IMG/VR virus record: IMGVR_UViG_3300045988_087221
From: a virus
DNA length: 64,000 nt
Direction: 5' to 3' (one strand)
A program made the position numbers and the translations under genes. This document shows positions 8 to 44,055 of the stretch, in pieces (within the stretch, counting starts at the first letter, position 1; each line of letters opens with the position of its first letter). The notes beneath the pieces were generated by a model. The model did not search any database, was not told where the DNA came from, and was given only the letters and a program-made list of their open reading frames with translations.

Positions 8-229
8 TTAGTCATTAAATAACTTTTCAATAGATTTCTTATAATCTGAATTCTTATGTACGAAATACAGAGCACATATAGTATTTATTAGAGGGCATAA
101 TACTATAAATAAAGTTAGCAAATTTATTTCTACTTTCTTAAGGTCCATGCGATAACTAATGTAGAAGCAACTTGCAAGATATATTACTATGCAAATAAGT
201 CCTATAATAAGTAACTCTCCAAAACTCAT
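8..229 (-). CDS. small membrane protein (hypothetical)
   Basis: 73-aa ORF with two hydrophobic segments. ATGA overlap with upstream gene. Confidence 0.5.
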   Translation of the reverse strand: MSFGELLIIGLICIVIYLASCFYISYRMDLKKVEINLLTLFIVLCPLINTICALYFVHKNSDYKKSIEKLFND

Positions 230-1377
230 AATTCTTTAATATCAGAATCTTCAGACTTTCCTAGATATATATCATTTATAATACAATTACTTGTACGTAA
301 TTGTTCTATAAAACGTATTATACCGATAATTCTTGGAGATTTATCTTGATAATCACATATAGTAGGAATGTACTTAGTCTTAAGGCAATCCCAATGAGTT
401 ATGACAATGTTAAACTTACAATGATATGTCTCACTATAATTATCTAAACAATGTCTTTCTACAGCTCTTTTAAACAAAGGATAGTCAAAAGGACCTGTTT
501 TAAACTCTCCTTGTGGTCCATCGTTAGTATTTGATGGTTCTTCTAGAGTAAAATACATTCCTAAGTCCATAGAATAAGGATTGTATCCATTTCCATGTCT
601 AGTTAAATATGGACGCATAACTAAGTATACTTCTGCATTTTCTAGACACTTCTCTGGGATTCCATTTAATCCTACTTTACTAGGAGTACAGTGAGGCATA
701 AATCCTCTTTCCATATCTAGAAGAAGACCTTGTGAACCCTCCCAAATAACAGTATCAACCTCATCAGGATAATAAGTTCCGATTATAAAAGTCTCAGGAT
801 GTTCTTTAATAAAGGTACAAGCCTCTTTAAAAAGATCATCTAGTTTAGTGTCCCGTTCTAGATTATGATAATCCCTTACAGTCTGTAAAGCTACATCTGC
901 ATATTCATCTGTATAAGGACACATACGAGCACTATAAGTTACATTATCTTTGTTTCTTTTAAAACAAGCATGTATACCTTTACCACAAGTTCCATTATAC
1001 TTCACTCGTCCATCCATAGAGTCAGCTAATACATCATAAGGTGTAATAACTCTACAGTTAGGATTTATATATAACTTAGGAACTTCAATACCCTCACTAA
1101 CTAAGACTTTATATTCATTATAAATACATATTGGGTCAATGAATACTTCCTTATATAAGCAAGTTGGTACTCCTAGCAAAACACCGCTTCCCCAAGAAGA
1201 ACATACGTGTGATTTACCTTTATAAACCACACGATGACCGGCTTGTGGACCTCCACTAAATCTGATGACAACAGGTTTGTAACTATTCATACATAGCCAT
1301 TGTACTACATTACCCTTACCCTCATCACCAAATAGAGATCCAAGTACTATTTGATTACGAATTTGTTTGCTGTCCAT
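226..1377 (-). CDS. adenylosuccinate synthetase (PurA)-like enzyme
   Basis: Motifs in PurA order: GDEGKGN P-loop, GGPQAGH, CGKGI, EGSQGLLLD..PS, TRHGNG. Start placed at MDSKQ; the track ORF extends to 1410. Confidence 0.75.
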   Translation of the reverse strand: MDSKQIRNQIVLGSLFGDEGKGNVVQWLCMNSYKPVVIRFSGGPQAGHRVVYKGKSHVCSSWGSGVLLGVPTCLYKEVFIDPICIYNEYKVLVSEGIEVPKLYINPNCRVITPYDVLADSMDGRVKYNGTCGKGIHACFKRNKDNVTYSARMCPYTDEYADVALQTVRDYHNLERDTKLDDLFKEACTFIKEHPETFIIGTYYPDEVDTVIWEGSQGLLLDMERGFMPHCTPSKVGLNGIPEKCLENAEVYLVMRPYLTRHGNGYNPYSMDLGMYFTLEEPSNTNDGPQGEFKTGPFDYPLFKRAVERHCLDNYSETYHCKFNIVITHWDCLKTKYIPTICDYQDKSPRIIGIIRFIEQLRTSNCIINDIYLGKSEDSDIKEL

Positions 1378-2167
1378 AACTGTTAGAAACAATACGAGCA
1401 ATAGATTCACCTACATGCTCTTTATCTGAAATAATAAGATTGTCTCCTACATAAGGCTTCCAACTATCTGAAACCCTTTCTACACTATAATAACCATCAT
1501 GTTCTACATGAATGTGATAAATATCCCACTTCTCAGCGCACTCTCTGTAAATGAAAGAGGTAGCTAAATCTTCACTACACTCATCACCTATATAATGAGT
1601 TACTGCTTCTTTAGGAAGAGTTTTATGAATTGGCTCATCACTAATTGTGATTAAACAGCCTTTAATACCTCTTTTCTCCAGAGCATCGGTCTTAATATGA
1701 TTAGCAGCGAAGTACCAACACATATGAGGATCTTCTCCTCCATTGCCACCTCCTTTACCTTCAAGGTCAACTTTACGGAGCCATTTCTCCATAAGTTCAT
1801 CACTTGATTCAAACTGTCCTACTTGTAAAGGAGCCTCTTCATAACAGCCCTCTACATCGCCAAATGCCATAAAACAGATTTGAGGATTATCAATACCTGC
1901 CTTCATAATACTAGCTACACAATCTGGTAAAGTATTATCAATAAGATATTTAGGCACTTTACCCATAGAACCAGTCTCATCCAAAGCAATAATGATAGGG
2001 AATGATTCTGGGTGTTCTTCAGAATCACAAGACTCTCTGAAATTAATGTTAAGAGGATTCATTTCAGGGTCTAACTTTTTCTTGCTGAATGTCTTTTCAA
2101 TAGACTGAGATCTGTAACTATGACTTCTAGCTACAGCATCATTATACGAATAACTACCACATCCCAT
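1355..2167 (-). CDS. von Willebrand factor A (vWA) domain protein, TerY-like
   Basis: IIIALDETGSMG MIDAS-like DxTxS motif followed by an alpha/beta pattern. 270 aa. Confidence 0.6.
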   Translation of the reverse strand: MGCGSYSYNDAVARSHSYRSQSIEKTFSKKKLDPEMNPLNINFRESCDSEEHPESFPIIIALDETGSMGKVPKYLIDNTLPDCVASIMKAGIDNPQICFMAFGDVEGCYEEAPLQVGQFESSDELMEKWLRKVDLEGKGGGNGGEDPHMCWYFAANHIKTDALEKRGIKGCLITISDEPIHKTLPKEAVTHYIGDECSEDLATSFIYRECAEKWDIYHIHVEHDGYYSVERVSDSWKPYVGDNLIISDKEHVGESIARIVSNSYGQQTNS

Positions 2168-14011: not shown

Positions 14012-14097
14012 AATAATTTAAATACAAAAATCCCTGAACTATATAGGTAGCCCAGGGATTAAAATAACGTTAAATAATAAAAACAGTTCTATGAACC

Positions 14098-14433
14098 GGT
14101 GGAGCATTGGAGAGTCGAACTCCAGTCACTCCGATTTGCATCAAAACATTCTTACAGCATAGGTTTTAAAGACTATCCTTGTCTGCTAGGGTTGACAAGA
14201 TTAACATATTGTCAACTTCCACCACTCTGTTCCTAAAGTATACAGAGAACTTACAAAAGAAATGGAAAATAGTGCACCTTTCTGTTCCTAAGCAAGTGCT
14301 GCTCGGCTTCTCAGGCTGCGATAGCGTAAGAAGCGGAAGTGTTATTTACTTCGCCAATTAATTTTTTACTTGTCTATCCAAGTTGTCTTGCTGTGTTCCT
14401 TATCTCCTCGAAGTTCAAAACCACGAATGCCCC
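14098..14433 (-). ncRNA. ssrA: tmRNA (complete, phage-encoded)
   Basis: The 5' GGGGCAT pairs with the 3' ATGCTCC-A-CC, giving G3:U70. T-arm GGAGTTCGACTCTCC. Internal tag frame 14311-14355 reads GGC GAA GTA AAT AAC ACT TCC GCT TCT TAC GCT ATC GCA GCC TGA = GEVNNTSASYAIAA*. Confidence 0.85.
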
Positions 14434-26591: not shown

Positions 26592-26630
26592 ATAAAAAGG
26601 AGTATACTAACTAATTAGCTAATATACTCC
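26592..26630 (-). terminator. hairpin plus U-tract terminator closing the RNA island
   Basis: GGAGTATA/TATACTCC 8-bp stem followed on the minus strand by TTTTTATATTT. Confidence 0.55.
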
Positions 26631-26666
26631 TATGAAACCTGGCATTTCAGTCTATCAAAGACTTTG

Positions 26667-26844
26667 GAGAAGTAATACGAATCGAACGTACTTCGGCTAC
26701 TTGATGTATTAAGTCTATCTATTATTATTTATTTGCTAAAACATTACATAGCTAATAATAGAAGACTGTTCACCTGATCATTATCACGTTACCTTTTCGC
26801 CTTATCACCTGTCCTACACACTCCGGATTATGTAGGTAACTCCT
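26667..26844 (-). ncRNA. expanded tRNA-like RNA (family member P2)
   Basis: Canonical T-arm GTACG-TTCGATT-CGTAT. Acceptor AGGAGTT/TACTTCT (6 of 7 pairs). D-like arm CCTACA..TGTAGG. About 100 nt of extra structured sequence sits where the anticodon and variable arms should be. Confidence 0.4.
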
Positions 26845-26850
26845 CTTTTC

Positions 26851-26880
26851 TCTAATTAGGTACACAAATCCCTAATTAGA
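26851..26880 (-). repeat. 10-bp-stem hairpin between the two tRNA-like RNAs
   Basis: tctaattagg/cctaattaga perfect stem. The loop contains TTTGTG (minus sense), as in the conserved-loop hairpin family. Confidence 0.6.
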
Positions 26881-26902
26881 TACAATGACTGAAACTTCGC
26901 AG

Positions 26903-27038
26903 TGGGGGACTTACGAATTAAACGTACTTCGAAACTTTCGTTCACAATTCCTAGGGAGTTACTAGAATTACCCTATTCCATTGTTTCCGTTTCCTTATCA
27001 ATCTGTCCTATGCATTTGCAACTACATAGGTATCCCCC
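26903..27038 (-). ncRNA. expanded tRNA-like RNA (family member P1)
   Basis: Acceptor GGGGGAT/GTCCCCC, T-arm TACG-TTTAATT-CGTA, D-like arm CTATG..CATAG, then ACAGATTGATAAGG and about 60 extra nt. Paralogous to 26667-26844. Confidence 0.45.
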
Positions 27039-27053
27039 AAATTGGTTGTATTG

Positions 27054-30711: not shown

Positions 30712-30954
30712 ATTAAAAAGTGCCTAAGGGTCGCTACTTCCTCTCCTCCCTAATTGCTAGCAGGGTATGCACTTGCCACTAAGACACTTAGCGCTTTAGG
30801 CTTTTTAAGGAGCCTTAACTTATTAAAGTTCTCACATATATTCATAACCAAAAACAGATAAATAATTCCATTTTCACAAACAGAACTTTTACCGAAAACT
30901 TAGAAAATTTTCAAACTTATGAGTATAAAACATCGAATATGAATAATAATAGAG

Positions 30955-31027
30955 TAAATACGGACAGACTCGAACTGCCAACCTCCGGATTAGTGTCCGT
31001 TGCTCTATCCAATTGAGCTACGCATTC
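30955..31027 (-). tRNA. tRNA-like gene with a 6-nt anticodon loop CACTAA (contains CTA); identity undetermined or pseudo
   Basis: Good acceptor (GAATGCG/CGTATTT), D arm (GCTC..GAGC) and T arm (GGCAG-TTCGAGT-CTGTC). The anticodon stem CGGA/TCCG encloses only 6 nt. Confidence 0.5.
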
Positions 31028-31186: not shown

Positions 31187-31750
31187 TTATTTATATGCAT
31201 AAAGACATATGTTTTTATTATTACTTAGTATTTTACTTAATTGCTTAAACTTTATAGGACTTATAACAAAACAACCTTCACTTACATTCATTGGTGCATA
31301 AATAGGATAAGTTGGAATATCACTAACAGTATAGTAAGGATGAATTAATAACATTCTTTGTTTTGCATTACTATTGGTATTAGATAATCCTTCTAGTATG
31401 TAACTAGGTAAGTTTAATCTTGTTATATTATAACCTCCTACTTTATAAAATCCTAAAGAAGAACAATGACTCCCTAACTTATTACTAAATACGGGATGAT
31501 CTTTTGTACTTCCTAAACCCATTCCATGAGCACATAAACTTTCTAGTACCACAGTTTTCTTATGTAAATCATATACATAAAATCTATTTTTACCAGAATG
31601 TTTATTAAAATCAACAAATATAATATAGTTAGTATTCATATTGTATTTATTTACATATTGAATACCTTTATTAATTACTTGTTGAGACAGCTCATCATGT
31701 GAACAACTTACACATAATAAGCTAATTAAAAATATTAATATTTGCTTCAT
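31187..31750 (-). CDS. lipoprotein, L,D-transpeptidase (YkuD_2)-like
   Basis: Lipobox LLCVSC. C-terminal H..(n)..SEGCFV resembles the LDT His/Cys active site. Standard code. Confidence 0.5.
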   Translation of the reverse strand: MKQILIFLISLLCVSCSHDELSQQVINKGIQYVNKYNMNTNYIIFVDFNKHSGKNRFYVYDLHKKTVVLESLCAHGMGLGSTKDHPVFSNKLGSHCSSLGFYKVGGYNITRLNLPSYILEGLSNTNSNAKQRMLLIHPYYTVSDIPTYPIYAPMNVSEGCFVISPIKFKQLSKILSNNKNICLYAYK

Positions 31751-31775
31751 ATCTAATTAAAATTTCCAATTTTGT

Positions 31776-32921
31776 TTATTTGGATATATAATTGCCATTT
31801 CTATCCTTGTAAGGATGTTCCTTTGTACCTGGTCGGTGAACTCCTGTAATACCCCAATCTAAAGTAGGACCTTGTTCAGAAACCATAAACTTACTAATCG
31901 GGTCTAACGATATAGTACCATTAACATTATGTAAAATGTAAGTTCCTCTTTTATTATTATGGTTTGGCTGAATAACTACTCCAGTATGTGAATTACTTCT
32001 ATTCAAAGTACCATTATTCCATGCCTCATCATTATGCGCTGAATTAGCAGAATATAAATCAACCATATCACCTTGCTAAAAATCGATATTGTTAAAATTA
32101 GCTTGAACAGCTGCAGATGCAGCAAGATTCTATAGTGTATGGGTAACTTTGTTGTAACCTCCAACTTTAGGAAGATATTTATAACCATTAAATATGGTAG
32201 AATCTCCATAAACACCTCGACCATCCCAAGCATTCATATCAGTTTTATGAGGACCAAGAACTCTTTCAATCTAGTTACGTGTCATAGCACACTATGTAAC
32301 TTTACCTGTTTTAGGGTTATACAAACTATATGTACCATCCCCATTAGGTACTAAACCTAAGTCTCCCATTCGAGACCCTCCAACTTTATGTCCAGTTCTA
32401 TCCTTATCAAATGCTGTATATGCATCATCTTTATATCTCCATGGTTTACTATTTGCATAACTATTTTGAGAGACTCTTTGTTCATCAGGGGTTCCATTAA
32501 CTAAATCCACAATAGGTTTAACTATATTTTTACCAAACCAATTTAATTTTGGAGCTGATGAAGTTTGATTAAATCGAGCATTATCTGCATCTTGTAGTTT
32601 CTACTATTTCTATTTTTGATAACTCTACCAAGCAGCTTCACTTTGTTTACCCCAATCTCCATCAATAGCTAGTTTATAACCTTTGTTGACTAGTTCTTTC
32701 TGTTTAGCTAAAGCCCCGGCTATATCATAACCAGCACCATGCTTAGCCATCAATCTAGCATTATAACTCCTAGATTTAGCCCTTCGCTAATTAATTGTAT
32801 TAGTAGCTCTCTAATTCATCTATTTTACTTTTCTTAATCTTGAATTAGTAAAATCCTGCATTTTCTATCTCTGTACTCCAATAATGTTTCCAAGATAACT
32901 ATTTTCAAAATTTCCTGTCAT
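31776..32921 (-). CDS. endolysin-like cell-wall hydrolase (PG-binding domain plus CHAP/NlpC-like Cys-His domain), TAG-recoded
   Basis: A single 381-codon frame links track ORFs 31776-32066 and 32292-32510 only if 12 in-frame TAG are sense codons. LVNKGYKLAIDGDWGKQSEAAW is a PG_binding_1 motif. A QCAMT Cys and SHTGVVI His follow. Ends in TAA. Confidence 0.7.
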
Positions 32922-33006
32922 AAATATTAATATTTAAGTTATTATTTTTAATTGATTAATCACTTATTTAGTATATATCTAGAACATAGAAATTACTAAT
33001 TAATTA

Positions 33007-33040
33007 AAACTCATACTACTTTCACAAGCAATATGAGTTT
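33007..33040 (-). repeat. conserved-loop hairpin R6
   Basis: 9-bp stem aaactcata/tatgagttt. Loop (minus sense) TTGCTTGTGAAAGTAG matches the family consensus. Confidence 0.6.
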
Positions 33041-33210
33041 AAAATGAAAGATAAAAATCTTCTACAAATCCAAAAATTCTACATTACTTATAAATTTTCA
33101 CAAATTCATAGTAATTATAAATAATTTCCATTTTCTCAAAACATAAATAATCAATTATGTGATTCGGACGGGACTTGAACCCGTACAGTCATTCCTGACC
33201 AAGGGATTTT

Positions 33211-33782
33211 CCTACCACACTTGCTTTTACACAAGCTAACTTAAATAAAGGGATTCGAACCCTTAATCCTCAAGAGATATTTAACGACGACTTTAGAGGC
33301 GCTTCCGTCAATCTGCTGCCGTATACCAATTCCGCCATATTTAAGTTATTGTGGTCTGGACTATTTTACTACCATATTAGAAATCTTGCAAGTAAGTATA
33401 TAAGGTTTAATCTAACCTCTAATAGCAGTCTGCTCCCCTTATTTCTGCGAATCTTGCCAGTTTAATTTTAAATATACAATTTCTAACTTAGGTATCTCCT
33501 CTATAGTCTCTACGCCATTTATGCTGTAACACTTCAATTTACATTTAAGATAGATTAGCGTTCTATCACAATTTAGTTCGCCATCGCCAAAATCTTATGT
33601 CACCATAGATGAGGTTTCTGTTGCAAGTCAATTAGATTTCTGAATACTGCTTCTATAATCATTACTCTGTTTCTTACACAGACGCTAACCTTTTTACAAT
33701 TAGTAATTAACTTGTTTAATTAGGGAGATTCTACTTCTGACCTTTCGTATCAGAGCACTCAAAACTGAATAAAGTATTTTTT
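33211..33782 (-). ncRNA. group I intron (IC3-like) in the anticodon loop between U34 and A35
   Basis: P1 ACUU^AAAA pairs with UUUUGAGU, with U-G at the splice site. The terminal nucleotide is G. The core GUAGAGACUAUAGAGGAGAUACCUAAG resembles the cyanobacterial tRNA-Leu intron P7/P3/P8 (GCAGAGACUCGACGGGAGCUACCCUAACG). P7' is AUAGUCCA. Confidence 0.75.
33239..33345 (-). ncRNA. tRNA-like element nested in the intron P9 loop
   Basis: Perfect 7-bp acceptor, Leu-like D arm GGCGGAATTGGTATAC, and canonical T arm AAGGG-TTCGAAT-CCCTT. The central arm GACGG/TCGTC carries a 14-nt loop containing CTCTAAA. 106-107 nt. Confidence 0.45.
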
Positions 33783-33871
33783 AAGTCCCTCGTGTCTACC
33801 AATTCCACCACCGAACCATTTGGCAGTTTTAGTATTTAACGTCTAAGTGGAATAATACTGCCAACCTTTAG

Positions 33872-33905
33872 ACAAAAAAGGAGCAACTAATTATCTGCTA
33901 GTTGC
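33872..33905 (-). terminator. hairpin plus U-tract terminator
   Basis: GCAACTA/TAGTTGC stem followed on the minus strand by TCCTTTTTTG. Confidence 0.55.
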
Positions 33906-34091
33906 CAACAATATTTGGGAAAAAACCAACATGTAATTTATGGGGTTGGTATTCTTATTTTTCAAACAAATTAAATCCGTTCAACATCATAGTCATATCC
34001 AATACCAATGTTCTCTAATAACCACGATGGATCATCCAATACATAATCATCTGGAACTTCTACTGTTACTTTTAATACTATCTTTTTCATA

Positions 34092-34451
34092 TTATAATTG
34101 TTCTAAAATTCCTTTTGCAATATATGAAGACACTTCTCTAGTAGTGTGATAAGAATCATTAAGTACTAAAATATACTTATCTTTATCATCAGGTTTCTTA
34201 GTTAATTCAGATATATATTTCTTATTAATTAAGAATCCTTTAGTTACTACTATATAATCAAGACACAATTTCTTAGTAATACTAGTTAAAGAACAACCAA
34301 TAGTAAACTTTCTATTATCCTTAGTTATTATTAAGACATATTTATCTAATGTCTCTAAACTAACAATATTCTCTACATTTATTTGTCTGTATTCAATGCC
34401 TTTAAATACAAGAAATGTATCAGAATCAATCTGTATTGTTTTTATTTCCAT
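34092..34451 (-). CDS. LytTR-type DNA-binding domain protein (candidate regulator)
   Basis: 119 aa. The pattern I..IVSLE......IITKD.....SL..I...L.....V.KGFLINKKYI is LytTR-like. Confidence 0.45.
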   Translation of the reverse strand: MEIKTIQIDSDTFLVFKGIEYRQINVENIVSLETLDKYVLIITKDNRKFTIGCSLTSITKKLCLDYIVVTKGFLINKKYISELTKKPDDKDKYILVLNDSYHTTREVSSYIAKGILEQL

Positions 34452-34464
34452 ATTATTTATTTAA

Positions 34465-34854
34465 TTAACCCATAATAAAGTGAGCACTTACGATATTCTC
34501 AGGATGATGAATAGTCTTAGCTAATTCATCTTTTGCCCATTTTTCAATAGCAGAATGTTTAACACCTGGAGCAATTTCGTGATAATACATTAAATCATAT
34601 ACTTTACCATTCTTAAAGGTTACACGTATTTGAAAAGTAGGGTCTACTCCATCTTCTATGAGTTTATCTGCTTCTTCTCTAGTTACCATATAACTAAATA
34701 ATGGATTAGAAAGATGTTCCTCCCAAAATTGCTTCTCTAGTTTAGCTAACTCTGCTCGTGCATATTTAAGCACATTCTTACAACCTAACTTCTCGGCACT
34801 ATCTATTTGCGCCAATAGTTTGGTCTTTTTAATAAAACGTTCTTCTCTTGTCAT
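34465..34854 (-). CDS. hypothetical protein
   Basis: 129-aa ORF. Confidence 0.55.
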   Translation of the reverse strand: MTREERFIKKTKLLAQIDSAEKLGCKNVLKYARAELAKLEKQFWEEHLSNPLFSYMVTREEADKLIEDGVDPTFQIRVTFKNGKVYDLMYYHEIAPGVKHSAIEKWAKDELAKTIHHPENIVSAHFIMG

Positions 34855-35040
34855 AATTTTATCTGTTAATGTGTTAATAATCTATTTAAATAATAGGCGA
34901 TTTTCACTGGTTATATTTAAACTATTCCATTGTCCTCAGCTATCTAACGTTCCTTCTCTTTTTAACCCAAATGATTAATTTTAAGGTGATTACGCTATTT
35001 AATAGAGTCACTGAGAGTTGTTTAGTACCTATTAAAATTG

Positions 35041-35111
35041 TTGGACTACCCAGATTCGAACTGGGGCTGACAGAACCAAAATCTGTAGTGCTACCATTAC
35101 ACCATAGTCCA
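35041..35111 (-). tRNA. tRNA-Gln (anticodon TTG)
   Basis: Acceptor TGGACTA/TAGTCCA (U1:A72), D GTGT-AATGGTA-GCAC, anticodon loop TTTTGGT, T CCCAG-TTCGAAT-CTGGG. Confidence 0.9.
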
Positions 35112-35113
35112 AT

Positions 35114-35141
35114 AAAATACTATTCTCACGAACCATATTTT
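35114..35141 (-). repeat. conserved-loop hairpin R0
   Basis: AT stem aaaata/tatttt. Loop (minus sense) TGGTTCGTGAGAATAG. Lies 3 nt upstream of tRNA-Gln. Confidence 0.45.
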
Positions 35142-35175
35142 CCAACTACAAGTTCACAATTTGTCATAAATGTTG

Positions 35176-35263
35176 CGGAGAAAGAAAGATTCGAACCTTC
35201 GAGCCACATAACATGACTAACACCTTAGCAGGGTGCCGCTTTAGACCACTCAGCCATTTCTCC
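35176..35263 (-). tRNA. tRNA-Ser (anticodon GCT)
   Basis: Type II: acceptor GGAGAAA/TTTCTCC, G73, anticodon loop CTGCTAA, long variable arm, T GAAGG-TTCGAAT-CTTTC. Confidence 0.85.
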
Positions 35264-35268
35264 AATAG

Positions 35269-35341
35269 GGTCACGCTAGGGATTCGAACCCTGTACTGTA
35301 GTCTCACAAACTACCGTGTTACCAGTTACACTAGACGGACC
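35269..35341 (-). tRNA. tRNA-His (anticodon GTG), imperfect acceptor
   Basis: G-1 present. D GTGT..ACAC and anticodon arm GTAGT-TTGTGAG-ACTAC are clean. The acceptor needs two bulges and the T stem has a C-A mismatch. Confidence 0.6.
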
Positions 35342-35346
35342 ATAAT

Positions 35347-35374
35347 GGCTTCCTATCTTCACAGACCAGAAGCC
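35347..35374 (-). repeat. conserved-loop hairpin R1
   Basis: Stem ggcttc/gaagcc. Loop (minus sense) TGGTCTGTGAAGATAG. Lies 5 nt upstream of tRNA-His. Confidence 0.6.
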
Positions 35375-35458
35375 TAACAACTCTTTAACGTTATAAAATC
35401 CACTGATTTTATATTTTAAACATTAATCGTATTAGTTTTATAAAATAATATGAAAGAG

Positions 35459-35531
35459 CAGCACTAACGAGACTCGGACTCGTTTTTCCACCTTGAAAGA
35501 GTGGCGTCCTAACCAGGTAGACGATAGTGCC
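35459..35531 (-). tRNA. tRNA-Glu (anticodon TTC)
   Basis: Acceptor GGCACTA/TAGTGCT, anticodon arm CCACT-CTTTCAA-GGTGG, T ACGAG-TCCGAGT-CTCGT. Confidence 0.85.
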
Positions 35532-35535
35532 AAGT

Positions 35536-35566
35536 AGATTCTCTATCTATCGCAGACCAAGAATCT
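35536..35566 (-). repeat. conserved-loop hairpin R2
   Basis: Stem agattct/agaatct. Loop (minus sense) TGGTCTGCGATAGATAG. Lies 4 nt upstream of tRNA-Glu. Confidence 0.6.
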
Positions 35567-35609
35567 CAGATAAATTTACATGTTTTTACGATTAAGTTAA
35601 ATCTCTATG

Positions 35610-35683
35610 CGCACCCTGCAGGATTCGAACCTGCGACATCAAAATTAACAGTTTTGCGTTCTAACCAACTGAACTAAGGGTAC
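35610..35683 (-). tRNA. tRNA-Asn (anticodon GTT)
   Basis: Acceptor GTACCCT/AGGGTGC, D GTTC..GAAC, anticodon arm CAAAA-CTGTTAA-TTTTG, T GCAGG-TTCGAAT-CCTGC. Confidence 0.9.
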
Positions 35684-35687
35684 AAAT

Positions 35688-35716
35688 CTTCACCTATTTA
35701 TCACAAACCAGTGAAG
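35688..35716 (-). repeat. conserved-loop hairpin R3
   Basis: Stem cttcac/gtgaag. Loop (minus sense) TGGTTTGTGATAAATAG. Lies 4 nt upstream of tRNA-Asn. Confidence 0.6.
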
Positions 35717-35753
35717 CACCAATTTAAAACGAATATTCTTTTAAGAGAATCGG

Positions 35754-35839
35754 TGTTCCCTATGGGATTCGAACCCATGACCCTCGGATTAAAAGTCCGA
35801 TGCTCTCAAGCCTTACGGAACCAACTGAGCTAAGGGAAC
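35754..35839 (-). tRNA. tRNA-Lys (anticodon TTT) with a 12-nt insertion in the D-loop
   Basis: Acceptor GTTCCCT/AGGGAAC, anticodon arm TCGGA-CTTTTAA-TCCGA, T ATGGG-TTCGAAT-CCCAT. The D region is GCTC-AGTTGGTT[CCGTAAGGCTTG]A-GAGC. Confidence 0.7.
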
Positions 35840-35847
35840 TAATTTTG

Positions 35848-35937
35848 CATACGGAGTAGGATTCGAACCCACGTTGTTTAACTCTCGTCTCTATAGGTTT
35901 TGGAGACCTACCCTTTCGACCACTCAGGCATCCGTAC
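35848..35937 (-). tRNA. type II (Ser-like) tRNA with anticodon CCA
   Basis: Acceptor GTACGGA/TCCGTAT, G73, Ser-like D arm GCCTGAGTGGTCGAAAGGG, perfect anticodon stem TAGGT/ACCTA with loop CTCCAAA, 21-nt variable region, T GTGGG-TTCGAAT-CCTAC. Confidence 0.65.
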
Positions 35938-35941
35938 ATAG

Positions 35942-36014
35942 TGGAGATACGTGGAATCGAACCACAATCTCGGGATTTTCAGTCCCGCGCTCTGACCTTC
36001 TAAGCTATATCTCC
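35942..36014 (-). tRNA. tRNA-Phe (anticodon GAA)
   Basis: Acceptor GGAGATA/TATCTCC, anticodon arm CGGGA-CTGAAAA-TCCCG, T GTGGT-TCGATTC-CACG region. Confidence 0.9.
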
Positions 36015-36247
36015 ATAGCCCACATTTCTATAAGTAGAATAGTGGTAAGAACTTTGCCCAAATAGGCATAACACACTAACAAAATATGATTAATTACAAT
36101 AAATTCAAATTAAAGTGATAGCGTCTTCTCATATCATGGCTGGTGATTGTAGAAACTCTACATACATGAGGCACTAAGAGAATCATTTCTCTCCCGTTAC
36201 TTCCCAAATTTAGACCAAATCTCCATAATTAGATAGCTAACTAATTA

Positions 36248-36440
36248 CAAAAATTAAAGGATTCGAACCCCTGTTTCTATCACTATATTTAAAATAGTTA
36301 TACTGATTGCAGGCTGTTAATTAATTAGCTATCTTAACTAACAGTTATTTCATATTAATCTTACCTAAGTAAGCTTGCGCAATATTTTGAAACTAAACAC
36401 TTATTGCCTATCCATCACTCACAGCTGCTAGATAATTTAA
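36248..36440 (-). ncRNA. possible third expanded tRNA-like RNA (P3)
   Basis: T arm AGGGG-TTCGAAT-CCTTT, AT-only partial acceptor, D-like arm CTAGC..GATAG, several internal hairpins. The weakest member of the family. Confidence 0.3.
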
Positions 36441-36499
36441 TTGTGTCCTATACTTCCTCTGGGAGGAGAGTATCAATATAACTTAAAATAAATATCAAT

Positions 36500-36582
36500 T
36501 TAAAAAGAAAGTTTAGTGGACTTTGAGTGCTAGATATATTAAATAGTACATCCTAAATAATACTCTAGTTATCCACCAAACT
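36500..36582 (-). terminator. long imperfect hairpin plus U-tract (terminator or small RNA)
   Basis: 11-bp outer stem AGTTTGGTGGA/TCCACTAAACT, inner stem CTAGA/TCTAG, followed by TTCTTTTTA on the minus strand. Confidence 0.4.
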
Positions 36583-36597
36583 TATCTCTGAAGAAAC

Positions 36598-36626
36598 CTA
36601 CAACTATTTATCACAAACCATTGTAG
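36598..36626 (-). repeat. conserved-loop hairpin R4
   Basis: Stem ctacaa/ttgtag. The loop is identical to R3 (TGGTTTGTGATAAATAG). Confidence 0.6.
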
Positions 36627-36709
36627 AACAATATTTTGTCGACCTATTTTAATTCACAATTATTACAACTTGAAAATATTTTAAATATCTTTGTTGTAAC
36701 TTGTAGTTG

Positions 36710-36783
36710 TGCTCCCATCCAGATTCAAACTGGAAACCCACAGCTTAGAAGGCTGTTGCTCTATTCAGTTGAGCTATGGGAGC
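36710..36783 (-). tRNA. tRNA-Arg (anticodon TCT)
   Basis: Acceptor GCTCCCA/TGGGAGC, D GCTC..GAGC, anticodon arm ACAGC-CTTCTAA-GCTGT, T TCCAG-TTTGAAT-CTGGA. Confidence 0.9.
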
Positions 36784-36922
36784 TGCTAATAATTAGCCTT
36801 TTTTCATCAACCTTGCCAAGTGAACTAACTATATAGTCAGTTATTTAGAATTGGTAGTTAATAAATGTTAATTTATAATCAACACTTAAAAACTTACCAA
36901 TTCTTTTATAGGCATAGAATGA

Positions 36923-41572: not shown

Positions 41573-42288
41573 TTAATTGTTCATAGATAGCTAATAACGT
41601 ACAACTGTTACTAACTATTTCGTCCAAGTCTCATCAGTATGAATTTTATAGTCTCCTTGGCTGACTAAACAATTTCTCTTACTCCTTGTTCAAGGGAAGC
41701 CTCTCTTTAAGCACTGAGGTTATTGCTTTAAAAATGTGTAGTTCTTCAACACTTACTATCTCCTACACTGATTTTCATTCAGCTTTCTTTTTGTATATTT
41801 GTAAAATATACTCAAATACTCTCAATGTGTTACGACTGCTTATCTACTTCTCATACAACTTAGCTTTATAATAATGTTAATTAATTATATATTAAGAAGC
41901 AACTCCACTCTAGATAAGTAAGTGAGCTGTGTTTTTTTACTTTAAACTTATTTTTAGTTTAACCGTCTAACTAAATAAAGGACTTAATGTTGTTTTAATT
42001 TTGTCATTTTTGTTTTTTCAAATAATACAAAGTAACAGCTCCCCATACACCAAATTGGCAAAATGGCAAATAAAGTGAAAGTACACTAAATGTGCCCTCC
42101 CACACATCTGCCGTTGCGCGCTTACCTCTCTAGTGTATCAGAGAGCTATGTTACTGTGTTTTATTTTTAATTTTGTTGTTAAATTTAGCTGTCTTTCCAG
42201 CTTGCCAGAATAAAAAATAGAAACATTGTTAACTAACTCTGTTGTTTTGTTGTTTATTGTTTTGTTGTGATTTTGTTGTTTACGACAG

Positions 42289-43958: not shown

Positions 43959-44030
43959 TCTCTTATGGTGTAATGGTCAGCACAGAAGACTCTAAATCTT
44001 TTAGTCAGGGTTCGAATCCTTGTGAGAGAA
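43959..44030 (+). tRNA. amber suppressor tRNA (anticodon CTA), Gln-like
   Basis: Canonical cloverleaf: acceptor TCTCTTA/TGAGAGA (U1:A72), D GTGT-AATGGTCA-GCAC, anticodon arm GAAGA-CTCTAAA-TCTTT, T CAGGG-TTCGAAT-CCTTG. The D arm is nearly identical to that of tRNA-Gln(TTG) at 35041-35111. Confidence 0.9.
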
Positions 44031-44055
44031 CAATTTAATTATAAAAATATGTATT

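Follow-up and report, generated by a model that had tools for sequence, protein, structure and literature searches.

The closest described systems to the element reported here are the PeSLs (promoter-early stem-loops) of T4-type phages, in which a host-type promoter is combined with a stem-loop terminator or attenuator (Arbiol et al., 2010, PMC2839356; Comeau et al., 2014, PMC4122927). As small composite elements, PeSLs recur many times in plastic accessory regions beside ORFans, the breakpoints of insertions, deletions, and replacements between close relatives fall at them, and in one subclass the stem-loop lies just downstream of the –10 box. A second comparison is with the theta (HDV-like; HDV, hepatitis delta virus) ribozymes, which occur beside the tRNAs of gut phages, recoded phages included (Kienbeck et al., 2024, PMC10879173); that paper makes no mention of hairpins upstream of tRNAs. 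We analyzed a 64,000-nt stretch of viral DNA (IMG/VR virus record IMGVR_UViG_3300045988_087221, hereafter the window), in which a family of hairpins beside tRNA genes had been noticed from the sequence alone (hereafter the original prediction). These hairpins resemble PeSLs in their repetition in plastic regions beside ORFans and in the breakpoints that fall at them, and would also resemble them in joining a putative promoter to a stem-loop that is a candidate terminator or attenuator. By contrast, in PeSLs it is the promoter that is conserved and the stem-loop is a simple pairing of a G-run with a C-run at a variable position, whereas here the tip of the hairpin is conserved, the stems and spacers are free, and the putative promoter is weakly recognizable. 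The hosts also differ (sigma-70 Enterobacteria versus Bacteroidales), the hairpins described here are tied to tRNA 5′ ends, and no homology is implied. Like theta ribozymes, they are small structured RNAs attached to tRNA genes of gut phages. However, theta ribozymes adopt a nested double pseudoknot directly 3′ of a tRNA, whereas the present element lies 5′ of the tRNA, at least 30 nt past the previous one, and is a simple hairpin with no ribozyme core. Because it is shared by many Bacteroidales phages and belongs to no catalogued RNA family, the hairpin is probably a new regulatory signal, for which we propose a predicted function below. Four features were no part of the original prediction: the tip is folded, a short U tract trails the stem, a T-rich spacer of at least 30 nt is obligatory upstream, and the element is distributed very widely outside this genome.

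Six hairpins had been reported in the window, and all six were borne out. They lie on the minus strand, which is the strand of the tRNA genes (Table 1, hairpins A to F). In the window, a relaxed regular expression for the conserved core gave 12 matches; complementary flanks of 6–9 bp accompany the six copies and none of the other six matches. The six hairpins are genuine and far above chance expectation. We used two covariance models, R1 from nine copies of the window and its relatives and R2 from 139 copies of unrelated viral contigs. Run on the window with filters off, both models returned the six copies and a seventh (hairpin G). With R2, the E-values were 3.5e-10 to 6.8e-5 for the six copies, 0.0035 for the seventh, and 0.33 for the next match. 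Hairpin G is degenerate (CTG TTT GTGA AAA TGG) and lies 64 nt past a tRNA and 150 nt ahead of tRNA-Ile. It is orthologous by position to a canonical copy (TTGCTTGTGAAAGTAG) in three relatives (L001, L002, and L012). A shorter relative had also been proposed at 26851–26880. Neither model matched it at E ≤ 10 and it has only TTTGTG in common with the family, so it is not a member. The noncoding region around it (26600–27050, minus strand) contains tRNA T-arm-like sequences, for example GTTCGATTC near 26690, which suggests that this region holds further unannotated or fragmented RNA genes.

Copies outside the window were examined in two sets. The relatives are 14 viral contigs of 106–225 kb, obtained through the neighboring open reading frame (ORF) 34465–34854, together with MT835539, obtained by megablast. 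All of these relatives have hairpins at orthologous positions, which provides the further copies in related phages that had been proposed as a check. The wide set comes from an exact scan of IMG/VR with 14 nt of the core, which gave at least 120 loci. Among the loci listed, 87 of 120 have a core match (the bait or another copy) with at least 5 bp of complementary flanks, and many hold extra copies with other cores (TTC/GAA, CTT/AAG, TCC/GGA, or TTT/AAA). R1 found 139 copies in 100 of the listed loci, 107 of them distinct; many of these contigs are from one metagenome project (3300045988), so the copies are partly non-independent. At each locus, one copy has its core fixed by the bait, and the 68 copies without the bait 14-mer have the same consensus.

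The shared part of the hairpins had been described as a loop of 16–17 nt. RNA folding showed that there is no open loop. Instead, the core pairs with itself to form an inner helix with a GNRA tetraloop. Positions 1 and 17 of the core form a Y–G pair (U·G or C–G). Position 2 faces an invariant A16, mostly as a G×A or A×A mismatch and at times as a U–A pair, as in hairpin F, where U–A replaces the G×A mismatch and the hairpin is fully paired. Positions G3 and U15 form an invariant wobble. Then come three inner pairs, mostly of a 5′ pyrimidine with a 3′ purine, and these covary (UUU/AAA, UCU/AGA, UUC/GAA, and CUU/AAG). A GUGA tetraloop caps the helix, and three window copies have an additional U in it. 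Below the core is a variable stem of 5–10 bp in general and 6–9 bp in the window, and the helix from loop to stem base is 11–16 bp. Across the 107 distinct copies of the wide set the stems are unrelated and the tip is nearly constant, with the G·U wobble in 105, the A in 102, and GUGA in 101. The tip is thus constant across Crassvirales and unrelated contigs while all stem positions turn over, which indicates purifying selection on its sequence. An invariant wobble, an unpaired A, and a specific tetraloop are explained by neither insulation nor termination, and point to recognition by a factor.

The idea that the stems are a selected structure was supported by all of the sets. The stems have no sequence in common yet are complementary, and their covariation is seen among the window copies, among orthologs in relatives, and among copies from about 100 unrelated viral contigs. 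For the wide set, 98.2% of cells were paired, compared with 34–48% in controls with slid partners, and double changes occurred in 10 of 11 pairs. The same was seen in the relatives, where covariation had been set out beforehand as a thing to look for: 97.2% of cells were paired, compared with 44–51% in slid controls, with double changes in 9 of 11 pairs. For example, among relatives the stem ahead of tRNA-Asn changes between CTTCAC/GTGAAG, CTCTAC/GTAGAG, and CTCCAT/GTGGAG, and the stem ahead of tRNA-Glu shows a compensatory change from AGATTCT to AGACTCT/AGAGTCT. The paired columns also reveal the strand. They contain G·U or U·G in 213 cells versus A·C or C·A in 6 cells. The mean free energy (ΔG) was –12.6 kcal/mol for the sense strand and –6.5 kcal/mol for its complement, and the sense strand was the more stable in 105 of 107 copies. 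The excess of G·U over A·C and the stability of the sense strand indicate that the structure is selected on the strand that is transcribed with the tRNAs. The selected fold is therefore RNA or, less likely, the non-template DNA strand.

The placement of the hairpins is asymmetric. Among 49 cases with a downstream tRNA, the tRNA starts 2–9 nt past the stem in 48. Among 85 cases with an upstream tRNA, at least 30 nt separate its end from the stem in 84; these distances range from 30 to 214 nt and cluster at 30–44 nt. Hairpins are never found between tRNAs that are only 3–5 nt apart, occur where a spacer exists, and always have the orientation of the flanking tRNAs. In the window, a spacing of 3–5 nt from tRNA 5′ ends had been given for four copies. 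This stands for tRNA-Asn and tRNA-Glu (4 nt each) and is corrected to 2 nt for tRNA-Gln and to 5–6 nt for tRNA-His. Approximately 35% of 124 non-redundant copies have a tRNA or T-arm-like element next, compared with 1.2% at random positions; this fraction is approximate because ARAGORN overlooks some intron-bearing tRNAs. Other products after hairpins are a long hairpin RNA, a hammerhead-like sequence, and small ORFs with no assigned function. The distance from the hairpin to the ATG of such ORFs is 8–65 nt, and a search of the downstream ORFs against PHROGs returned small proteins with no function assigned and nothing informative. For half of the copies, the 500 nt upstream contain no long ORF, and a comparison of convergent and divergent ORF coverage was therefore noisy and underpowered. 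That the hairpin hugs the downstream RNA and stays at least 30 nt from the upstream RNA argues against a plain terminator of the upstream gene. The same asymmetry is consistent with an element at the head of a unit that requires about 30–45 nt of upstream sequence, which is the size of a compact Bacteroidetes promoter.

One copy, hairpin A, precedes a long hairpin RNA as originally described, and the long hairpin begins 7 nt later, which leaves no space for a separate promoter between them. The 151-nt stretch 36480–36630, hairpin A included, has a minimum free energy of –37.5 kcal/mol (z = –3.6). The long hairpin itself is about 86 nt, is followed by a U tract, and had no Rfam match at E ≤ 10 in a scan of 32800–36900; this predicted RNA is probably a small RNA (sRNA). 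Another copy, hairpin F, had been placed upstream of a recoded endolysin. We could not confirm the endolysin identity of the ORFs past 33007.

The sequences on either side of the hairpin have promoter-like and terminator-like features. The 30 nt upstream of the hairpins are 45% T and 10% C. The motif TAnnTTT, which is most of the Bacteroidetes –7 box (described in PMC7366714), is in 38% of upstream flanks compared with 6–8% in three controls, and TAnnTTTG is in 10% compared with 1%. A composite –33/–7 match with at most two mismatches was found in 36% of flanks and in 20–21% of controls, and in AT-rich DNA such matches are weak grounds for predicting a promoter. For the orthologous hairpin C, the spacers in the window and in MT835539 are unrelated and promoter-like boxes are present in both. 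A –7 box within the 3′ arm or the U tract that would drive the tRNA was rejected, as the start site would land inside the tRNA. Downstream, T makes up 56–67% at positions +1 to +5 past the stem, and 73% of non-tRNA contexts, compared with 49% of tRNA contexts, have at least four T among the first 8 nt. The hairpins have a mean ΔG of about –14 kcal/mol (–13 to –15), and their strength did not differ significantly between tRNA and non-tRNA contexts (p = 0.06). One feature of an intrinsic terminator, a stable stem-loop that leads straight into a U tract, is thus present (in the window, in hairpins A, F, and G and weakly in B to E), and GNRA tetraloops are common in terminators. Another, a position tied to the 3′ end of the upstream gene, is absent given the 30–214 nt upstream versus 2–9 nt downstream. 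Ordinary terminators also differ in having no conserved sequence, no invariant wobble or mismatch, and no fixed placement 2–9 nt before the next gene.

Comparison with the relatives showed that the hairpins adjoin the edges of exchanged modules. Three different tRNA-Gln genes follow the same hairpin E (window 35040–35113, L006:5806–5890, and L009:8028–8110). The tRNA-Gln(UUG) of the window is replaced by two unrelated tRNA-Gln genes, with flanks that are identical to 3 nt past hairpin E and again from about 10 nt past the tRNA. Similarly, an ORF cassette of approximately 1.8 kb (about 31200–33006, minus strand) lies directly past hairpin F in the window and is missing from L003, L004, L005, and others; in relatives without the cassette, hairpin F is joined to sequence that matches the window at about 31190. 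The last ORF of the cassette (31187–31750) resembles a lipoprotein. In some relatives hairpin D is directly followed by tRNA-Ser instead of tRNA-His. Overall, the copies cluster in plastic accessory regions.

Table 1. Hairpins of the family in the window, the RNA genes that follow them, and putative promoter boxes
Feature	Position	Strand	5′ arm	Core	3′ arm	Remarks
Hairpin A	36597..36627	–	TCTACAA	TGGTTTGTGATAAATAG	TTGTAGG	R2 27.6 bits; 82 nt past tRNA-Arg
Long hairpin	36504..36589	–				About 86 nt, then UUUCUUUUU; sRNA-like unit with hairpin A at its head
Hairpin B	35688..35716	–	CTTCAC	TGGTTTGTGATAAATAG	GTGAAG	R2 28.6 bits; 4 nt ahead of tRNA-Asn
tRNA-Asn(GUU)	35609..35683	–				Downstream partner of hairpin B
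Putative promoter boxes before hairpin C	35571..35601	–				TTTA, 19 nt, TAAATTTA, 4 nt to stem; in 43-nt spacer
Hairpin C	35536..35566	–	AGATTCT	TGGTCTGCGATAGATAG	AGAATCT	R2 25 bits; 4 nt ahead of tRNA-Glu
tRNA-Glu(UUC)	35458..35531	–				Downstream partner of hairpin C
Hairpin D	35347..35374	–	GGCTTC	TGGTCTGTGAAGATAG	GAAGCC	R2 41.7 bits; 5–6 nt ahead of tRNA-His
tRNA-His	35269..35340	–				Rfam match only; downstream partner of hairpin D
Hairpin E	35114..35141	–	AAAATA	TGGTTCGTGAGAATAG	TATTTT	R2 33.5 bits; 2 nt ahead of tRNA-Gln
tRNA-Gln(UUG)	35040..35111	–				Downstream partner of hairpin E
Putative promoter boxes before hairpin F	33046..33074	–				TTTG, 17 nt, TATCTTTC, 5 nt to stem
Hairpin F	33007..33040	–	AAACTCATA	TTGCTTGTGAAAGTAG	TATGAGTTT	R2 34.3 bits; U-rich tail, then ORF cassette of about 1.8 kb
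Hairpin G (seventh copy)	30862..30889	–	AAAGTT	CTGTTTGTGAAAATGG	AATTAT	R2 19.6 bits, E = 0.0035

To learn how widely the element occurs, we also examined cultured phages and bacterial genomes. In crAss001 there is a single copy in the 100 kb scanned (1880–1907), 7 nt ahead of tRNA-Glu. The same site is occupied in DAC15, cr126_1, and PhiCrAssBcn4 with identical cores and with different stems (CUAUAU/AUAUAG in DAC15; CCACUC/(U)AGUGG, with one pair mismatched, in cr126_1; and ACUAUC/GAUAGU in PhiCrAssBcn4), and the pairing of hairpin C with tRNA-Glu in the window is also found in crAss001 and DAC15. Among 185,579 species genomes scanned with a 16-mer, there were 119 matches, of which 35 have hairpin flanks; 29 of these 35 are in Bacteroidales. 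Isolates with the motif include Bacteroides xylanisolvens XB1A, B. congonensis, B. acidifaciens, and Parabacteroides hominis, where the contexts resemble prophage tRNA arrays. This distribution indicates that the element belongs to Bacteroidales phages and prophages and is not a general feature of host terminators. The statement that no described motif matches was upheld, since Rfam 15 had no match on any hairpin, either at the gathering threshold over the whole window or at E ≤ 10 over 32800–36900. A search of open-access full text for core sequences, in DNA and in RNA spelling, found no paper, and keyword searches on hairpins and promoters, crAss-like phages, and tRNAs returned no relevant paper.

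From these results we tentatively favor the idea that the hairpin is part of a punctuation cassette, in which it heads small transcription units, acts as a terminator or attenuator, and offers its tip as a docking site. Bacteroidales phages would use this stem-loop to head the tRNAs, small structured RNAs, and ORFan genes of their accessory regions. The predicted order of a unit is a T-rich spacer of about 30–45 nt with a Bacteroidetes-type (–33/–7-like) promoter, then the hairpin, a short U tract, and the gene for the product. Incoming transcription from upstream would be halted or attenuated at the hairpin and U tract, which would insulate neighboring units. The unit's own transcripts would begin at, just before, or within the hairpin, making the hairpin or its tip a 5′ leader that RNase P would trim off the tRNAs. 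The non-canonical, invariant tip may dock a trans-acting phage or host factor that sets the amount of transcription that passes. A composite cassette reconciles the position at the head of units with the anatomy of a terminator, as in PeSL elements (PMC2839356, PMC4122927). In this model, the fold, its strand, its conservation, its distribution, and its placement are observed, and the promoter, the stopping or attenuation of transcription, and the factor are predicted.

Several points weigh against a punctuation cassette. The composite promoter score is enriched only about 1.7-fold, and the –7-like boxes are found anywhere from 0 to 12 nt from the stem. The tRNA-adjacent copies of the window have weak U tracts (ATTT, ACTT, ATTAT, and AT) and AT-rich stems, and would therefore terminate poorly. 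A terminator-like hairpin right past its own promoter would threaten its own transcripts, unless initiation occurs in the 5′ arm or a factor intervenes. No candidate for a protein that binds the tip was identified. Finally, crAss001 (100 kb scanned) and DAC15 (5.8 kb scanned) have a single copy each, inside the tRNA array, and a lone copy means that the element is not a general class of promoter or terminator in those phages.

There is a modest chance that the G·U wobble, the unpaired A, and GUGA form the site of a dedicated, putative factor that gates transcription or processing into phage tRNA and accessory genes, as a switch of the TAR or boxB kind common to crAss-like and other Bacteroidales phages. 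In a variant of this, RNase P would free the hairpin as an abundant decoy RNA. Short hairpins near the start of a transcript that act on elongation or termination include lambda boxB with N, HIV TAR with Tat, the LoaP leader hairpin, and RAT with BglG. They have a conserved surface in the loop or internal loop, GNRA-like in boxB, and a variable context. Any likeness of our hairpins to these systems would be functional. By contrast with these systems, we found here no partner protein, no boxA-like element, and no alternative antiterminator fold, and the conserved part is inside a terminator-like hairpin.

A rather unlikely alternative to the punctuation cassette is that the hairpin lies purely at RNA 3′ ends, namely those of the upstream RNA, formed by termination at the U tract or by RNase P cleavage at the adjacent tRNA, and that the released hairpin, with or without the spacer, is a stable sRNA or decoy that binds a factor. 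Approximately 90% of copies have either a tRNA-like element within 2–13 nt or a U-rich tract next, and termination and RNase P cleavage alike would leave the hairpin with a short 3′ tail. There are also arrays of four to seven hairpins about 60–160 nt apart with nothing recognizable between them (L086, L100, and L076). Read from the sequence, the tRNA genes of these phages do not encode CCA, and without an encoded CCA, endonucleolytic processing of tRNA 3′ ends would free fragments made of a trailer and a hairpin. Set against this are the position, which is tied to the downstream RNA (2–9 nt) and not to the upstream RNA (30–214 nt), and the lack of conservation of the spacers between orthologous sites, which makes a seed-bearing sRNA unlikely. 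No target or mimicked host RNA was identified.

Two of these arrays contain other elements. In L086 (9590–10875, minus strand), six to seven family hairpins within 1.3 kb are interleaved with a repeated segment (a GGAC-GAAA-GUCC mini-hairpin) and intron-bearing tRNA-like genes. In L100 (169–300), a hammerhead-like core (CUGAUGAG...CGAAAC) lies about 45 nt past a family hairpin, and the locus has four family hairpins within 820 nt.

We consider it unlikely that the hairpin is an endoribonuclease site or a leader determinant of tRNA 5′ maturation, where a host RNase III-like enzyme, a phage nuclease, or modulated RNase P would cut precursors into units. RNase III sites cut the early RNA of T7 into units in this manner. 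The hairpin is consistently close to mature tRNA 5′ ends, is missing where tRNAs are 3–5 nt apart and present where a spacer exists, and has a conserved non-canonical internal region and tetraloop that resemble a surface recognized by an enzyme or other protein. However, its helix of 11–16 bp is short for bacterial RNase III. A site of the T7 R-site type, with about two turns of double-stranded RNA and an internal loop, was rejected for this reason, even though the intercistronic position does fit. Cleavage also accounts neither for the U tract (+1 to +5) nor for a T-rich spacer that spans at least 30 nt. Moreover, the RNase P protein contacts the leader, so a stable hairpin 2–5 nt upstream is expected to hinder and not help this enzyme.

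It is improbable that the hairpin is a factor-independent insulator of folding, in which a stable, fast-folding hairpin prevents the spacer from mispairing with the tRNA or the ribosome-binding region and the tips are alike through descent and the spread of cassettes. An unrelated UUCG hairpin 3 nt before the first tRNA of the XB1A array, in the same position as the motif hairpins, speaks for such a role, as does the hairpin-to-ATG distance of 24–38 nt in 9 of 18 cases, which is near the typical Bacteroides 5′ untranslated region of 23–32 nt (PMC7366714). Nonetheless, insulation needs no invariant G·U, unpaired A, or GUGA, as Watson–Crick pairs are more stable, and a constant tip with full turnover of the stem indicates purifying selection on sequence. 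The XB1A array (L223:3760–4660, minus strand; B. xylanisolvens XB1A, NC_021017, about 1.003–1.005 Mb) is a chromosomal prophage-like tRNA array. The hairpin before its first tRNA is GCCCGG-UUCG-CCGGGC, family hairpins occur at two later tRNAs, each after a repeated GU-rich block (TGTTTTATTTTGTGTTTGTG), and the array ends in an ordinary terminator hairpin without the motif.

Very unlikely, finally, is an element that acts as DNA, as a hairpin or cruciform serving as an N4-type single-stranded promoter, a cassette-recombination site, or a signal for single-strand initiation of replication: breakpoints of gene replacements, insertions, and deletions do adjoin hairpins in plastic regions, but such breakpoints are expected at the unit boundaries of any regulatory cassette, as with PeSLs, the U tract or tRNA after the stem is an RNA-level feature, and the orientation is always that of the flanking tRNAs. 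The original suggestion of a hairpin-type promoter is likewise disfavored in its N4-type form. N4 promoter hairpins are on the template strand with a stem of 5–7 bp and a 3-nt loop, whereas the wobble bias (213 versus 6) points to the sense, non-template strand, the antisense hairpin is about 6 kcal/mol weaker, and the helix is 11–16 bp with a tetraloop.

Other identities were considered and rejected. The motif is reminiscent of the 5′ terminus of human Y1 RNA. A link with Ro60 and Y RNAs was rejected, as the element is a local hairpin and not an end-pairing stem with a bulged C beside a TROVE gene. A tblastn search for TROVE found no homolog in the window or the fetched loci, save the two crAss001 loci that supplied the query. 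In crAss001, the TROVE (Ro60-like) protein Gp96 (L137:46870–48288, minus strand) lies beside a noncoding gap of about 900 nt that contains no family hairpin; the single copy in this phage is about 6 kb from Gp96. A CRISPR repeat or repeat-mimic RNA needs near-identical repeats, stem included, and the stems here are unrelated. On inspection, the defining cores of the hammerhead, HDV-like, pistol, and hatchet ribozymes, signal recognition particle domain IV, the sarcin-ricin loop, and the K-turn are missing.

The window has several other RNA genes. A RAGATH-1 hammerhead ribozyme is at 41581–41667 (minus strand; 80.8 bits versus a gathering score of 56.3) with no family hairpin adjoining. A phage-encoded transfer-messenger RNA with the tag peptide GEVNNTSASYAIAA is at 14097–14433 (minus strand). 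On the plus strand, a tRNA with anticodon CUA (43959–44031; called 'Pyl' by ARAGORN) is an amber suppressor, consistent with TAG recoding, and has no family hairpin. Three odd tRNA genes on the minus strand, an 86-nt tRNA-Lys (35754–35839), a 105-nt tRNA-like match (33240–33344), and a 'tRNA-???' with a 2-nt anticodon call (30955–31027), may carry introns or be unusual tRNAs. In addition, the ORF at 226–1410 (minus strand) matches phrog_1211, an adenylosuccinate-synthetase-like family (3.8e-43). Its product may be PurZ/PurA-like, which would bear on DNA with a modified base (2-aminoadenine).

The crAss-like phages rank with the most abundant human gut viruses, and to our knowledge almost nothing is known about how they control transcription or express their tRNA arrays. 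The motif described here is short, strongly supported by covariation, and specific to Bacteroidales phages and prophages. It is present in cultured systems (crAss001 with B. intestinalis and DAC15 with B. thetaiotaomicron), so its function is directly testable. If the hairpin marks the boundaries of units, it would allow transcription units to be delimited, unannotated small RNA genes to be found, and the shuffling of cassettes to be predicted from sequence in thousands of uncultured phage genomes. Should the tip bind a factor, no cis-regulatory RNA switch would have been defined earlier in this phage group, and the hairpin would possibly also be a portable insulator or regulatory part for engineering Bacteroides. 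Were such a factor-gated switch to exist, a phage could use it to time the supply of tRNAs and, when recoded, the change of genetic code.

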